Shown: piece after piece, positions 1,170 through 22,620 of the stretch | Position numbering within the stretch: the first letter of the stretch is position 1 | Layout: every line of letters starts with the position of its first letter | Source of the DNA: a virus | Lineage: Duplodnaviria; Heunggongvirae; Uroviricota; Caudoviricetes | DNA length: 22,620 bases | Direction: 5' to 3' (one strand) | Virus record (IMG/VR): IMGVR_UViG_3300045988_014132 | Coordinates: 1 to 22,620 of that record | Made by a program: the position numbers and the translations under genes | Notes under the pieces: generated by a model | Databases searched by the model: none | Seen by the model: only the letters and a program-made list of their open reading frames with translations | Told to the model about the DNA's origin: nothing

Positions 1170-1528
1170 ACGAATATCAGTTTGTGCTTCCATACCCGCC
1201 GTCGGTGAACACCTACTGGCGAAGACGGGGAAGCCAATACTACATCAGCGATAAAGGCCAGAAATACCGAAAAGACGTTCAGCAAATCATCCGCCAACTT
1301 AAGTTAGACATTTTCACTAAATCACGACTCCGCATCAAAGTCATCGTAGACGTTCCGGACTCCCGCCGTCGCGACCTCGACAACATCCTGAAAGGTTTAC
1401 TCGACTCCCTTATCCACGCCGGATTTGCGGAAGACGACGAGCAATTCGATGACATTCGCGTAATTCGTGGCGTGAAAGTACCAGGCGGAAGGCTTGGAAT
1501 AAAAATCACCGAACTGGAGAACGCATGA
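1166..1528 (+). CDS. rusA: Holliday junction resolvase RusA
   Basis: 120-aa ORF; LPYPPSVNTYWRRRG, PDSRRRDLDN and GGRLGIKITELEN motifs match the RusA family; ATGA overlap with upstream gene. Confidence 0.85.
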   Translation: MNEYQFVLPYPPSVNTYWRRRGSQYYISDKGQKYRKDVQQIIRQLKLDIFTKSRLRIKVIVDVPDSRRRDLDNILKGLLDSLIHAGFAEDDEQFDDIRVIRGVKVPGGRLGIKITELENA

Positions 1529-1713
1529 ACGCCACAATTCAAACGATACCAGAGCTTCTTATCCAGACACGAGGCAATCAGACCGAAGTGGCAAGGATGC
1601 TTTCCTGCGCAAGAGGAACAGTGCTCAAGTACAACCGAGACAGCAAAGGCGAGCGTCACGTAATAGTTAACGGCGTCCTGATGGTCAAACAGGGCAAAAG
1701 GGGAAGGCCATGA
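1525..1713 (+). CDS. ninH: NinH-like protein
   Basis: 62-aa ORF; TIPELLIQTRGNQTEVARMLSCARGTVLKY resembles lambda NinH (helix-turn-helix-like); ATGA overlaps on both sides. Confidence 0.75.
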   Translation: MNATIQTIPELLIQTRGNQTEVARMLSCARGTVLKYNRDSKGERHVIVNGVLMVKQGKRGRP

Positions 1714-2333
1714 GACTCGAAAGCGTAGCTAAATTTCATTCGCCAAAAAGCCCGATGATGAGCGACTCACCACGGGCCACGGCTTCTGACTCTCTTTCCG
1801 GTACTGATGTGATGGCTGCTATGGGGATGGCGCAATCACAAGCCGGATTCGGAATGGCTGCATTCTGCGGTAAGCATGAACTCAGCCAGAACGACAAACA
1901 AAAGGCTATCAACTATCTGATGCAATTTGCACACAAGGTATCGGGGAAATACCGTGGTGTGGCAAAGCTCGAAGGAAATACTAAGGCAAAGGTACTGCAA
2001 GTGCTCGCAACATTCGCTTATGCGGATTATTGCCGTAGTGCCGCGACGCCGGGTGCAAGATGCAGAGATTGCCACGGTACAGGCCGTGCGGTTGATATAG
2101 CCAAAACAGAGCAGTGGGGGAGAGTTGTTGAGAAAGAGTGCGGAAGATGCAAAGGAGTCGGCTATTCAAGAATGCCAGCAAGCGCCGCATATCGCGCTGT
2201 AACGATGCTAATCCCAAACCTTACCCAACCCACCTGGTCACGCACTGTTAAGCCGCTGTATGACGCTCTGGTGGTGCAATGCCACAAGGAAGAGTCAATC
2301 GCAGACAATATTTTGAATGCGGTCACACGTTAG
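1710..2333 (+). CDS. Q: Late gene antiterminator Q (lambda type)
   Basis: 207-aa ORF, same length as lambda Q, with CRDCHGTGR...CGRCKGVGY zinc-binding motif; lies directly upstream of a pR'-like promoter and the S-R-Rz cassette. Confidence 0.9.
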   Translation: MRLESVAKFHSPKSPMMSDSPRATASDSLSGTDVMAAMGMAQSQAGFGMAAFCGKHELSQNDKQKAINYLMQFAHKVSGKYRGVAKLEGNTKAKVLQVLATFAYADYCRSAATPGARCRDCHGTGRAVDIAKTEQWGRVVEKECGRCKGVGYSRMPASAAYRAVTMLIPNLTQPTWSRTVKPLYDALVVQCHKEESIADNILNAVTR

Positions 2334-2375
2334 CAGCATGATTGCCACGGATGGCAACATATTAACGGCATGATA

Positions 2376-2404
2376 TTGACTTTTTGAATAAAGTTGGGTA
2401 GATT
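2376..2404 (+). promoter_or_regulatory. pR'-like late promoter (with overlapping Q-utilisation region expected)
   Basis: TTGACT at 2376-2381, 17-bp spacer, TAGATT at 2399-2404; position immediately downstream of Q matches lambda pR' organisation. Confidence 0.6.
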
Positions 2405-2440
2405 TGACCCAACGATGGATAAATGCACTCGTTAAATAAA

Positions 2441-2468
2441 GCCCTGAGTTAATAGCTCGGGGCTTTTT
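2441..2468 (+). terminator. Intrinsic terminator in the late leader (first)
   Basis: 8-bp stem gccctgag / ctcggggc (one G-U pair) with 7-nt loop, followed by TTTTT at 2464-2468, about 35-60 nt downstream of the predicted start. Confidence 0.55.
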
Positions 2469-2485
2469 GCGTTACAATCACAAAG

Positions 2486-2563
2486 GGAAGAGCGTTAGGT
2501 GAATCGGCGATACTGCCCCACAAGCCCGTTAATCGATAGAGGTAGACTAGCGCTCTTCCTTTT
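2486..2563 (+). terminator. Long-range stem structure plus T-tract in the late leader (candidate tR'-like terminator or structured leader RNA)
   Basis: Perfect 9-bp inverted repeat ggaagagcg (2486-2494) / cgctcttcc (2551-2559) enclosing about 56 nt, followed by TTTTGTGCT. Confidence 0.35.
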
Positions 2564-2867
2564 GTGCTGAATTAAGCGAATGCCGGAAGCAGAACCGGAT
2601 CACCAAATGCGTACAGGCGTCATCTCCGCCCAGCAACAGCACAACCCAAACTGAGCCGTAGCCACTGGCTATCCTGAATTCATCAGTGATAGTTACGCTG
2701 CGGCCTTCTACACATGACCTTCGTGAAAGCGGGTGGCAAGAGGTTGCGCCAACAACCTCCTGCCGTTTTGCCCGTGCATATCGGTCACGAACAAATCTGA
2801 TTACTAAACACAGTAGCCTGGATTTGTTCTATCAGTAATCGACCTTATTCCTAATTAAATAGAGCAA

Positions 2868-2889
2868 ATCCCCTTATTGGGGGTAAGAC
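2868..2889 (+). promoter_or_regulatory. sdi-like stem-loop sequestering the holin Shine-Dalgarno (dual-start control)
   Basis: cccc-ttatt-ggggg hairpin directly upstream of the ATG-AAG-ATG dual start; same arrangement as the lambda S sdi element. Confidence 0.55.
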
Positions 2890-3213
2890 ATGAAGATGCC
2901 AGAAAAACATGACCTGTTAGCCGCCATTCTCGCGGCAAAGGAACAAGGCATCGGGGCAATCCTTGCGTTTGCAATGGCGTACCTTCGCGGCAGATATAAT
3001 GGCGGTGCGTTTACAAAAACAGTAATCGACGCAACGATGTGCGCCATTATCGCCTGGTTCATTCGTGACCTTCTCGACTTCGCCGGACTAAGTAGCAATC
3101 TCGCTTATATAACGAGCGTGTTTATCGGCTACATCGGTACTGACTCGATTGGTTCGCTTATCAAACGCTTCGCTGCTAAAAAAGCCGGAGTAGAAGATGG
3201 TGGAAATCAATAA
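2890..3213 (+). CDS. S: Class I holin S (S107 antiholin / S105 holin dual start)
   Basis: 107-aa ORF starting [22 protein letters not shown]; essentially the lambda S protein as recalled; Met1-Lys2-Met3 dual-start motif present. Confidence 0.95.
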
Positions 3214-17547: not shown

Positions 17548-20283
17548 ATGGCTAATTACCGTGATTTGTTAGAGCAGGCTGGCGCACGTTACGGTGTGCC
17601 AGAAGGGTTGATGACTGCACTGGGTGCCAAGGAGTCTTCTTACAACCCTGCCGCAGTAAGCTCCGCCGGGGCTGTAGGATTGACTCAGGTCATGCCTGGG
17701 ACATGGCGTGATATGGGTTATACCGATGAGCAAATGCAAAACCCCGAATATCAGGCTGACGCTGGCGCGCGCTATCTGGCAAAGATGTACCAGCAGTTTG
17801 GTAACTGGCGTGATGCTCTTCAGGCTTATCACGACGGTCCCGGCAACGTTATGAAGGCAAAGCGTGGTGAATATACGCCAGGACCTGAAGGCCGCGGTTA
17901 CGTTGATGATCGCTTTGCTCAATGGGCGGGTGACCCGGTGACAGACTCAACAGTCGAACAGCGCGCCACCTCTGCAAAGGTACATCCTCAGCAAGACCCT
18001 AACAACCCGTTTGCACAACTGGAAGCACAGTCATCCGAACAAGTATCGGCATCAGGTGTGCAGTCAGACCCAAATAATCCATTTGCTCAGATTGAGCAGC
18101 AGGCAGCCAGTCAGCAGCCACCTCAACCCGTAAGTTCTGTCGCACCGAAACCTGTTCAGCAACAAACAGTTAATCAGGCCAATAATGAATCAGCACGTGA
18201 AGAACCATCATTGATACAACAAGCTGGCGATTGGCTCACAGGTGGTCAAAGTGCAGGGCAAATTGCAGAGCAGGCTGGTCGTGGTCTGGTAAACATACCA
18301 TTTGACGTATTGCAGGGTGGCGCAAGTCTGATTAATGCAATCAGCCAGGGGCTTGGTGGCCCCAAGGTTTTGGACGATGTCTATCGTCCAGTAGATCGAC
18401 CGACAGACCCTTACGCGCAAGCTGGAGAGTCAATAGGCGGTTATCTTGTTCCTGGAGCAGGAGTAGCTGGAAACATGGTCATTGGTTCTCTCGCTGACGC
18501 GGCGAATCAACGGGGTGATTTTGCCGAAAATGCCGCTATTAATGCCGGACTTAACATTGCTACGCATGGCCTGATAAATGGCGTTACCCGTGGTGTTCGT
18601 GGTGCATCAAATATAATTAGTGGCAATAAAACATCTGCACAGAGAGCGACCACTGCGCCAACAGAAACATCACCATTCTCCGGTGATGCCGCTGCAGCAA
18701 CAAATCCTGCGGTTCATGCCGCAGAGGCAAGAGTAGCACAAGGTGTACCAATGACGCCTGCGACGAGGAACCCAGAGGAAGTCGTTCGCACAGTAGCAGC
18801 ACAAAAAAGGCCAAATCTCGCTTCATCGCTTGATGAACTAGATATCAATCCTCAGGCTGAAGTTCTGGAGTCTGCTGAAAGGCTTAATGTTGATTCATTA
18901 CTCCCTTCACACTTTTCCGGGAACGAGCAATACAAGGCAGTTGAGCAAGCAATCAAGTCCCGTGCGGGTTCTGCTCTACAGGTGCAGGAAAATGAAGCAA
19001 TCAGGCAGCTAGCACAGGGCGCGGGGGAGATAATTGATCGCGTTTCCGGTGCAAAAGATGCTCTTGGTATGAGCGACAAGTTTATTGATACGGTCAATGG
19101 AAGAATGTCTGCGCTGATGAAACGAAGCGACCAGCTTTATCGCAATGTTGAAAAGGCGATGCCTGCAGGTGCAAAAATTGATGCGCCATCAACAAGGTCA
19201 ATGCTCAAACAGGTGGCAGAAGATCTTGGCGGGATGAAAAACCTTGACCCTATTGAAAAGAGAGTCTTTCGGGCAGTTAATCCAGGCAAGAACGGCGCAT
19301 TAACTTATGCAAATCTCAATAAGCAACGACGACTTGTTGGCGATGCACTTCATAAGAATTCTGGACCATATAAAGATGCTGATCGCGCTGCTTTATCGAG
19401 GCTTTACGGTTCGCTCGCCGATGATCAAAAGGCGGCGCTGTCAGAGACAAATGCATTACGTGATTTTGAAGTTGCTCAGAGGCTTGTTCAGATGCGAAAA
19501 AGCATGGAAGAGCAAATGATTAATCTAACTGGCAGAACGCTGAACGGTGATGTTTCTCGCAAAGCAACTACAGCACTACAGGCAATGTCGAAAGGCGATG
19601 CCAAAGGATTTCGTGAATTGATGCAAAACACGCCGTCCAGGAAGCTAAGAACCGAGCTACTGGGAACAGGTCTTCGGGATATGCTTTCGAACGGAAAACG
19701 TGGCGCTGATTTTAATCCTGCAGGGTTTGCTGACTGGTATCAAAACATGTTAGCAAACGGGCAGATGCGCAATCTTGCCCGACATTTACCAAAAGAGACT
19801 ATGTCAGGTCTGAACGATGTATATAAGGTCGCAAAGGCTATCAAAGACGCAAAATCTTACGAGATAACTACAGGAAGACTAAACGAGTTCGTCAAACGGT
19901 TTAATCGCGTCACTGCGGCAAATGAATTTGTTGCCAACCATGCCCAACGCATTGGCACTGCGGTTGGTTCAACTGTGTCAGGACCGTTCAGTGCAGTAGG
20001 TGCTGTTGCTGGGTCAGAAATTGGGGCAAAAGTCGCCAGCAAAATCAGGGCGATGGGCGGCGCTGCATCAATGGAATCTGCAGAAAAGCTAATTAGCTCA
20101 CCAGAATTCCAGAAAGCAGCAAGGCTGGCAGTAAAACAAGCACCAGAAAGCATCGTTGATACAACTGTAAGACGCTCTTCTGCTTGGCGCTCGTTTTACA
20201 ACTCACTTCCAGAATCAGATAAGAAAACCATATCAAGGCTAGGCATCATGTACTGGATGAACAGTGATGATAACCAGAAGTAA
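17548..20283 (+). CDS. Ejection protein (gp16 position) with N-terminal lytic transglycosylase (SLT) domain
   Basis: 911-aa ORF; N-terminal [33 protein letters not shown] ... AYHDGPGNV matches the family-1 SLT catalytic region (Glu-Ser ... GLxQ ... AYNxG); followed by low-complexity Gln/Pro region and a long helical C-terminus. Confidence 0.8.
17995..18096 (+). repeat. Two copies of an in-frame 30-nt unit encoding DPNNPFAQ(L/I)E within the gp16-like gene
   Basis: gaccctaacaacccgtttgcacaactggaa (17995-18024) and gacccaaataatccatttgctcagattgag (18067-18096) encode the same decapeptide with mostly synonymous differences. Confidence 0.8.
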
Positions 20284-20300: not shown

Positions 20301-20594
20301 TTAGTTGCTGTCTTTTTTATATAAATCTCTGAGCGTATCAAAGACAATTTTCTTTACCATATCGGATTGTTGGTCTGCCATACGCTCTGCATCGTCAATG
20401 TAAACTGGTGCAGAGCTTTGTTTAGCCAATGATTCTTCAATCGCTGCAATTATCTCTGAGTTCAGCGACCTGTTATTCATCTTCGCACACTGCTTAATTT
20501 TCGCGTGGAGTTCATGCGGAAGTCTCAAGTGAAACTGCGCCTCGTCGTATTTGCTGTACATCCTTGATGCCTCACCAGTTGGGTGGAATGGCAT
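20301..20594 (-). CDS. mnt: Mnt-like ribbon-helix-helix repressor (Arc/MetJ superfamily)
   Basis: 97-aa - strand ORF; N-terminal RHH motif (FHLRLPHELHAKIKQCAKMNNRSLNSEIIAAIEESL) and C-terminal DAERMADQQSDMVKKIVFDTLRDLYKK closely resembling the P22 Mnt tetramerisation tail as recalled; convergent with the ejection operon, divergent from the tailspike. Confidence 0.8.
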   Translation of the reverse strand: MPFHPTGEASRMYSKYDEAQFHLRLPHELHAKIKQCAKMNNRSLNSEIIAAIEESLAKQSSAPVYIDDAERMADQQSDMVKKIVFDTLRDLYKKDSN

Positions 20595-20682
20595 CGTAAC
20601 CTACTGGATAAATACTCAATAGTACCATTTCGGTATGCAATCACATCATGGTTGCATCATATCATTCGTCTGGAGCAATGAA
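20595..20682. promoter_or_regulatory. Divergent mnt / tailspike control region with candidate operator
   Basis: 88-bp AT-rich intergenic region; inverted repeat ATGCAA (20635-20640) N11 TTGCAT (20652-20657); GGAG at 20672-20675 serves the tailspike ATG. Confidence 0.45.
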
Positions 20683-22620
20683 ATGTCAGATATCACCGCA
20701 AATGTTGTGGTAAGCATGCCTTCGCAACTCTTCACTATGGCTCGTTCTTTTAAAGCCGTAGCCAATGGCAAAATTTATATCGGTAAAATTGACACTGACC
20801 CGGTAAACCCTGAAAACCAGATTCAGGTTTATGTGGAGAACGAAGACGGCTCTCATGTTCCTGTTTCGCAACCAATCATCATTAACGCTGCTGGTTACCC
20901 AGTATATAACGGACAGATTACCAAATTCGTAACTGTACAAGGCCATTCTATGGCTGTTTATGATGCGTATGGTTCCCAGCAGTTCTATTTTCCTAATGTG
21001 CTGAAGTATGACCCTGACCAATTAAGACAAGAGCTAGCGGGTCCAAATGGATATCTTCTAATCCCATCGATGGATCAGCATATTAAAATTCAGCAGTGGA
21101 GAGAAGAGGGTGACATTCGCGGATGGGGTGCTATTGATGGAGAGTTCAACGATGCTGCTGTATCCGCTGCATTAGACTCTGAATCTCCTAGCGTTAAACT
21201 TGGTGGCGTCGGATTCGTTTCAAAACTTCGCTCACCTATTAACCACAAAAGTAATAAAGTGATGCATAGCGGGTCATTAAACTTTCAATTTGATGGCGGA
21301 ACTCAGCAAGAGAAATCCGGGATACTTATGGCTAACATCTCCAACGCCAAAGTGATTGATGTTGATATAACAGGCACCCTGGATGGAGGAATTCGTGGGT
21401 ACGGTGGCAGCAATATCGTTATAGACGGCGTGAATGTTCACGATATTGGAATTTCAACGCTATCCGGTGAGTGCGGCATAGGAATATGGTTCGGTGATTA
21501 TGCAAACTACGATGTACAGACGGATGGGCTGTTAATTCAAAATTGTAATATCAAAAATATTGGAGGTGTAGGGATACAGCGTGGGGATGGCATCCTGGTT
21601 TATAACGCGAAAAATTTCAAGGTAAGGTATAACACCATCATTACAACCAATAGGATGGCTATTGCAGCTGGAAGTGATACTAGGCAGTTTGAGATTCATG
21701 GAAACTACATAGGTGATACGCTATTAGCTGGTATAGATATTGAGCCTGACGAAGGTTACACTGCTTCAAATTTCAAGATATACAATAACAATATTATCGG
21801 ATTTGCTGCACGATACTTCACTCAAGGATCTGGTGTTGGTCAAACCTTTGGTATAGATACTCATGCTAATACCTCATATGGCAAAGTGTATAAAAACACA
21901 TTGTCTGCAGGACAGTATGGAACAGAAGCATTTCATATAGGAAACCATGCGGATGAGATTGAAGTTACGGATAACAACCTGATTGGCGGTGCTGTTGTAA
22001 TCCCATTATTCATCAAGACATATGATGGTAGTGGTAGTAAACACATCAAAATAAACCGCAACAGGGCAAAAGGGACGTGTAAGTCATTTGCAGATGTAGC
22101 CATGTCTGAAGATGTTTATATTTCTGAAAATGTATTCTCTGGCAATAGTTCTAATGATAGTTATTTCCTGAGAGCGTCAACAATAGCAGGGCTTAATGTT
22201 GACTACAACCGGTCAAGCAACACAACCAATTTCATCAAGTCTGGTGACGCTGGAAACACGTCAAGCGTGAAGGTCACTAATAATAACGCTTCTACCCTTT
22301 CAGATGGTATAGACATGCTAACGTCGGGTTCCATGACTGGTTTTATTGCTTCTGGCAACACTATTTTATGTCCAGCATCCAACAAAGGAATTTCACTGGA
22401 AGTAGCAGGTTCAGGTTCTATTTCAGACATTAGTCTCCGTGGCAACATAATTTATAATGCTACAACCAAAATATATGTATCACCAGCTGCCACGGGATGG
22501 GATATGTTAACCAAAAATACCAGGTTTGATCTGTCTGGAGTTCAAAATGGCACTCAGCTATTTGAACTATCAAGAAATAGAGTTACACAGTTTCTTAACA
22601 ATGCTTGGTATGATGGCTAG
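20683..22620 (+). CDS. 9: Tailspike: P22 gp9-like N-terminal head-binding domain fused to a divergent parallel beta-helix receptor-binding domain
   Basis: Start taken at the internal Met ([50 protein letters not shown]...VLKYDPDQ), matching the conserved gp9 head-binding domain; downstream sequence unlike P22 gp9 but has beta-helix-like repeated N/G/I-rich rungs; TAG stop is 22618-22620, the final bases of the window. Confidence 0.85.

Follow-up and report, generated by a model that had tools for sequence, protein, structure and literature searches.

A P22-like prophage tailspike carrying an exchanged beta-helix module of the O111/O35 O-antigen subtype

The tailspikes of phages P22 (gp9), Sf6 (gp14) and HK620 (gp9) act on O antigens as endoglycosidases. 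The tailspike gene analysed here, which closes a stretch of 22,620 nucleotides of viral DNA (hereafter, the window), shares with these three its head-binding domain, the overall layout of an anchor joined to a beta-helix and its placement at the end of the late operon. The same gene, encoding 645 aa, is found in the prophages of the STEC O111 strains 11128 (WP_000129903.1) and 110512 (WP_136721029.1), and STEC O111 prophages show the same order of Mnt/Arc repressor, tailspike, convergent acyltransferase and dacD. Their backbones differ from that of the window, which encodes a 911-aa SLT-gp16-like ejection protein and lacks both arc and ant, which in the 11128 prophage separate the ejection genes from the tailspike. 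Unlike the window, moreover, the prophages of 11128 and 110512 are interrupted by IS1203, copies of which were located within or beside them (L002:48-1261 and L006:2477-3690 in 11128; L014:1-962 in 110512). In 11128 one copy splits the scaffolding gene. Both prophages are probably defective, yet neither the tailspike nor the acyltransferase gene is disrupted.

Two further relatives belong to myoviruses with different anchors. Residues 484-1010 of TSP4 of the Salmonella Kuttervirus STP55 (UPU15645.1) are 82% identical to residues 114-644 of the window protein (81.5% at the nucleotide level), but STP55 TSP4 carries a 483-residue Ackermannviridae TSP4 anchor where the window protein has its head-binding domain of 113 residues, and is part of a four-spike branched complex. 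In gp151 of ECGD1 (Justusliebigvirus, phi92-like), the DNA of the receptor-binding domain (RBD) is 93.8% identical over nt 404-1916 of the window gene; the N-terminal anchor of this protein is of the PF18668 type, and the phage, which is virulent and multivalent, bears several spikes, gp151 among them.

Modules of this kind have already been catalogued and put to use. An O111-specific RBP subtype, found in a Lederbergvirus prophage, has been described (PMC10408124), a subtype there being defined by an identity of 30% or more across a coverage of 60% or more. Residues 113-645 of WP_136721029.1, from the strain 110512 prophage, were fused to the fibre anchor of the R2 pyocin, and the resulting R2-O111 tailocin, tried on a single O111 strain (10-1120), cut its viable cells by 4 log at 3.1 µg/mL (PMC11762384). 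Separately, the C-terminus of CBA120 TSP4 was swapped for nt 1471-3036 of STP55 TSP4, and recombinants whose tropism had changed from O78 to O111 were selected as plaques on the O111 strain ATCC BAA-2201 (PMC12737597).

Gene call and head-binding domain

The open reading frame spans 20635-22620 on the + strand, and ATG 20683 is the likely translation start rather than the upstream ATG at 20635. A GGAG motif at 20671-20674 lies at a spacing of 8 nt from ATG 20683, and the RefSeq model of E. coli O111:H- 11128 (WP_000129903.1) agrees with our call in both length and start. Under this call, codon 116 begins at position 21028 and the window closes with the stop codon, the interval 21028-22620 corresponding to residues 116-645 plus the stop. 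Short open reading frames on the opposite strand inside the gene are without support. The features of the gene are as follows:

20683..22620, + strand: tailspike gene, 645 codons plus stop; equivalent of P22 gene 9 and Sf6 gene 14
20683..21021, + strand: head-binding (particle-anchor) domain, residues 1-113; PF09008
21022..21111, + strand: linker/neck and module junction, residues 114-143
21112..22620, + strand: predicted right-handed parallel beta-helix RBD of the O111/O35 O-antigen subtype, residues 144-645
21382..21936, + strand: candidate substrate groove and catalytic centre, residues 234-418

The family phrog_19784 (PHROGs v4), annotated as 'tail spike protein', matches the window protein over its full length. 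Judging by the open reading frames of the window, the gene stands at the end of the late operon of a P22-type morphogenesis cluster, past the ejection proteins and the immI repressor, and the Pfam context of contigs harboring an identical tailspike agrees with this position. By its anchor and its gene position, then, the gene is classified as a P22-like (Lederbergvirus) tailspike.

Directly upstream of the tailspike lies a gene for an Mnt/Arc-type ribbon-helix-helix repressor (20301-20594, - strand), preceded by that of the 911-aa ejection protein (17548-20283, + strand), which joins an N-terminal SLT lytic transglycosylase domain to a P22 gp16-like part. In other prophages with an identical tailspike, the ejection protein is 602 aa or 665 aa long and gives no SLT call.

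The full Pfam Head_binding model (PF09008) aligns with residues 1-113 at an E-value of 1.1e-66, and a phmmer search of all PDB chains matched Sf6 gp14 at residues 1-118 (E 2e-64) and P22 gp9 (8tvr, 2xc1) at residues 1-117 (E 1.6e-50), in addition to isolated head-binding domains. In the same search, no alignment with P22-, Sf6- or HK620-type spikes continued past residue 118. Foldseek placed the identity to N-terminal chains of Sf6 gp14 at 85-91%, and at the DNA level other Lederbergvirus tailspikes show 87-95% identity to the gene, but no further than gene nt 338 (residue 113). A preliminary description of this DNA had taken residues 1 to about 115 for the conserved head-binding domain of P22-family tailspikes, a boundary that proved right to within a few residues. 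Residues 1-113 would be the part that docks the spike onto the tail hub, a part that is swappable among phages of the P22, Sf6, HK620 and CUS-3 types.

Module exchange and association with O111

From position 1 to ~21030, the window is a typical Lederbergvirus late region. Without the RBD, it shows 96-97% DNA identity to many non-O111 E. coli prophages and to the Lederbergvirus phages APC_JM3.2 and IME10, and all of these alignments end between positions 21012 and 21044. The protein alignment with STP55 TSP4 starts at residue 114, and the DNA alignments with ECGD1 gp151 and STP55 TSP4 start at gene nt 404, so that within the junction (residues 114-143) homology passes from P22-like spikes to those of unrelated phages. 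Elsewhere, the RBD is joined to different anchors: PF18668 in ECGD1 gp151, PF18668 together with PF03906 in P0036, long proteins of 913-915 aa with no Pfam anchor domain (P0037, P0048) and the 1011-aa TSP4 of Kuttervirus STP55. These alignments identify residues ~114 to 645 as a horizontally exchanged beta-helix module, in keeping with the architecture of a conserved anchor and an exchanged RBD that had been proposed at the outset.

The DNA of the RBD is 100% identical to that of an STEC O111 prophage tailspike. Compared with the allele of STEC O111:H- 11128, the window gene harbors 19 nucleotide differences, all of them at gene nt 4-238 (window 20686-20920), and none in the other 1700 nt, which begin at gene nt 239. 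Since the differences are confined to the first 238 nt, they indicate a recombination breakpoint inside the head-binding domain, on top of the module junction near residue 114. An origin of the window from STEC strain 11128 was rejected, given the different prophage backbone of that strain and these 19 positions in the head-binding domain.

Among 5426 complete E. coli genomes, the RBD was found in 23, with an identity of at least 99% in 20, ~94% in two and 85% in one; the alleles of 100, 94 and 85% identity sit in different strains. Probing the same genomes with wzx-wzy taken from the O111 cluster in 11128 classified 60 of them as O111, and all 23 carriers were among these 60, with none among the other 5366. 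The association has a Fisher P of 8e-48, a value inflated by the clonality of STEC O111:H8, since most carriers belong to a single STEC O111:H8/H- lineage and independence is thereby overstated. The divergent alleles are carried by non-STEC-like strains from avian and other sources, and phage ECO111 5-P, which was isolated on E. coli O111, has a copy of the RBD with 89% identity. Homologues are also present in prophages of Salmonella (81-90% identity) and Citrobacter (81-82%), one of the Salmonella carriers being serovar Adelaide, which we take to be of group O35 and whose O antigen, going by the title of Wang and Reeves (2000), is the same as that of E. coli O111. The restriction by O antigen covers the complete E. 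coli genomes and serovar Adelaide.

The window RBD falls within the published O111 subtype, differing from the 110512 RBD by one substitution in 533 residues. Over the whole protein, WP_136721029.1 and the window protein are identical at 641 of 645 positions, and the part grafted onto the pyocin fibre differs at G553D only; nt 1471-3036 of STP55 TSP4, the segment grafted onto CBA120, corresponds approximately to window residues ~121 to 645, at 82% identity. The pyocin graft shows that a near-identical module is enough by itself to turn a tailocin against an O111 cell (PMC11762384), and the 82%-identical copy redirected a Kuttervirus, CBA120, likewise (PMC12737597). Because of the genome association and the published grafts, we assign the glycan target of the module to the O antigen of E. 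coli O111, a colitose-branched polysaccharide identical to that of Salmonella O35, and since the module is predicted to recognise this antigen, it would also set the host range.

The preliminary description had likewise named the C-terminal part as the host-range determinant, a claim upheld by the module exchange and the O111 retargeting. It had further held that the glycan target was unknown from the sequence and had implied that the domain was novel, unless it proved highly identical to a spike of known specificity. Neither statement survives the comparison, in light of the catalogued O111 subtype, the exclusively O111 carriers among complete E. coli genomes and the R2-O111 fragment lying one residue away.

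Fold of the module and a candidate groove

Searches of the RBD against all PDB sequences, whether as a single sequence, as a family profile or with its central 251 residues, gave no meaningful match, and for this reason no catalytic residues can be transferred to it by homology. Pfam detected a Beta_helix domain (PF13229) at residues 212-373 with an E-value of 6e-10, and the P22-tail domain was absent at E-values up to 0.1. Homology to the P22 endorhamnosidase fails beyond the anchor, as gp9 aligns over residues 1-117 only. The C-terminal 530 residues are rich in Asn, Gly and Ile (9.2, 12.5 and 9.8%, whereas the window's other late proteins have 5.5, 7.5 and 4.9%), and their GC content is 41%, compared to 50%.

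An AlphaFold2 model built with 29 homologues reached a mean pLDDT of 80, with most of residues 144-645 above 90. It predicts a long beta-helix from approximately residue 144 to the end, with a regular pattern of short strands, preceded by a stretch with pLDDT below 50 at residues 107-133 and a helix at residues 130-142; the head-binding domain was also poorly modelled. Structure searches with the model retrieved beta-helix depolymerases and tailspikes; lyases and epimerases are among the fold neighbours, and the sequence identity to the lyases was just 12-16%. On the strength of the model, the RBD is placed in the fold class of right-handed parallel beta-helix (pectin-lyase-like) depolymerases. 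Three earlier claims are thereby borne out: that the ~530 C-terminal residues are unlike the P22 endorhamnosidase (phmmer, profile and Pfam searches showing no match), that they are enriched in Asn, Gly and Ile, and that their repeats point to a fold of the beta-helix depolymerase type, on which PF13229, the model and the structure searches agree.

The RBD family is small: relatives with at least 59% identity form ~50 clusters (at the 90% identity level), and an exhaustive phmmer search of 1.84 billion protein representatives yielded 37 that reach an E-value of 1e-3. None of these 37 is annotated, and their alignment is usable for mapping conservation only. A PHROG labelled 'tail spike protein with colonic acid degradation activity' (phrog_8280) aligns with residues 1-535 (window 20683-22287) at an E-value of 2e-108, scoring ~80 bits above families that match the anchor only, and suggests a related beta-helix family under another label. 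Its 'colanic acid degradation' was treated as an unreliable family label and was rejected as a description of function.

Conservation among the relatives singles out the following set of residues:

Candidate groove residues: D234, E263, R300-G-D302, R324, D352, E354, Q387, D392, H394, H418

In relatives of 20-37% identity, D234, R300, G301, D302, R324, D352, E354 and Q387 are invariant and E263 and D392 nearly so, while H394 and H418 are invariant in closer relatives; STP55 TSP4 keeps all of the proposed groove residues. According to the strand register of the model, R300/D302, R324, D352/E354, D392/H394 and H418 lie on or adjoin the third strand of five successive coils, a register that would align them along one face of the helix. 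We propose that the conserved residues make up a candidate substrate groove and catalytic centre.

Proposed mechanism and downstream neighbourhood

We consider it very probable that the gene encodes a Lederbergvirus tailspike in which an exchanged beta-helix module recognises the O111/O35 O antigen. By analogy with P22, Sf6 and HK620, the spike would be a homotrimer that inserts its N-terminal domains into the tail hub and binds O-antigen chains with its beta-helices; as a putative endoglycosidase it would also cut the O-antigen backbone, enabling the virion to descend to the outer membrane, with hydrolysis possibly proceeding via the conserved acidic residues D302, D352, E354 and D392 of the groove. 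In Table 3 of PMC6436433, the repeat unit of O111 is given as Col(a1-3)[Col(a1-6)]Glc(a1-4)Gal(a1-3)GlcNAc, and the rfb cluster of the host encodes a GDP-colitose pathway. As this unit contains no uronic acid, a hydrolase is favoured over beta-elimination. On the same ground we ruled out the lyase mechanism that the top fold matches would have offered.

An alternative account holds that the module merely binds the O111 O antigen in a lectin-like manner and that infection proceeds by binding alone, with no depolymerase involved. We found no published report of O111 LPS cleavage by this RBD, the literature found gives no enzymology for the O111 subtype, and the retargeting experiments require nothing more than binding. 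However, conserved Asp, Glu, Arg and His residues line one face of five coils even at 20-37% identity, a pattern typical of catalytic grooves and not of binding surfaces, and the characterised O-antigen spikes of this family are, as stated, endoglycosidases, which makes a purely binding module unlikely. Slightly less likely still is an enzyme of another class (lyase, epimerase-like enzyme, O-deacetylase or side-chain colitosidase) whose substrate is the O111 antigen or a different surface glycan of O111 strains: the uronic acid required by both beta-elimination and C5 epimerisation is missing from the O111 unit, the Pfam scan detected no esterase domain (SGNH or similar) and the resemblance to lyases in sequence is as low as given above.

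The receptor itself might also be something other than the O antigen, for instance a capsule or a protein of the outer membrane, in which case the link to O111 would reflect clonal descent only. The predominance of one STEC O111:H8/H- lineage among the carriers is what such descent would produce, but it does not account for the divergent alleles in avian and other non-STEC-like strains, for the carrier of serovar Adelaide with its presumably identical O antigen, or for two independent grafts being active on the unrelated O111 strains ATCC BAA-2201 and 10-1120, and we regard this account as very improbable. Returning to the endoglycosidase reading, a bolder version of it, in which the beta-helix module is the founding member of an uncharacterised GH family, cleaving the colitose-branched O antigen on an AlgE-like 'G-I-D-x-H' scaffold, is conceivable but doubtful; if true, the chemistry and the cleaved linkage would be new, the specificity being already known.

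Downstream of the tailspike, five of the six listed contigs with exactly this protein carry, at a distance of ~40 bp, a convergent gene for a 355-aa Acyl_transf_3 protein (PHROG 3333, O-acetyltransferase), and the gene called on the remaining contig, L013, encodes 315 aa. The acyltransferase is followed by an integrase or by dacD.

L009:9979-11046, L008:9979-11046, L002:13634-14542 and L015:6991-8058: downstream acyltransferase; the equivalent spot lies just past the end of the window (22620)

A copy of this acyltransferase with 97% identity also follows a Salmonella tailspike of 87% identity, and an 81% identical Citrobacter variant of the tailspike has GtrB/GtrC-like genes downstream instead. 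The acyltransferase is probably a lysogenic-conversion cassette that modifies the O antigen and is paired with the RBD, similar to oac in Sf6.

To summarize, both the specificity of this RBD and the O111 subtype were already known, and the finding is real but ordinary; its practical value has been realised, the O111-recognition part serving in engineered tailocins and reporter phages for the detection or killing of STEC O111. For the biology of the phage, our reading means that the window prophage or its ancestor would infect O111-type cells and, presumably, Salmonella cells of the O35 type, which bear the same O antigen. For the family, the module is a clear case of a single RBD moving among P22-like prophages, Kuttervirus and Justusliebigvirus.
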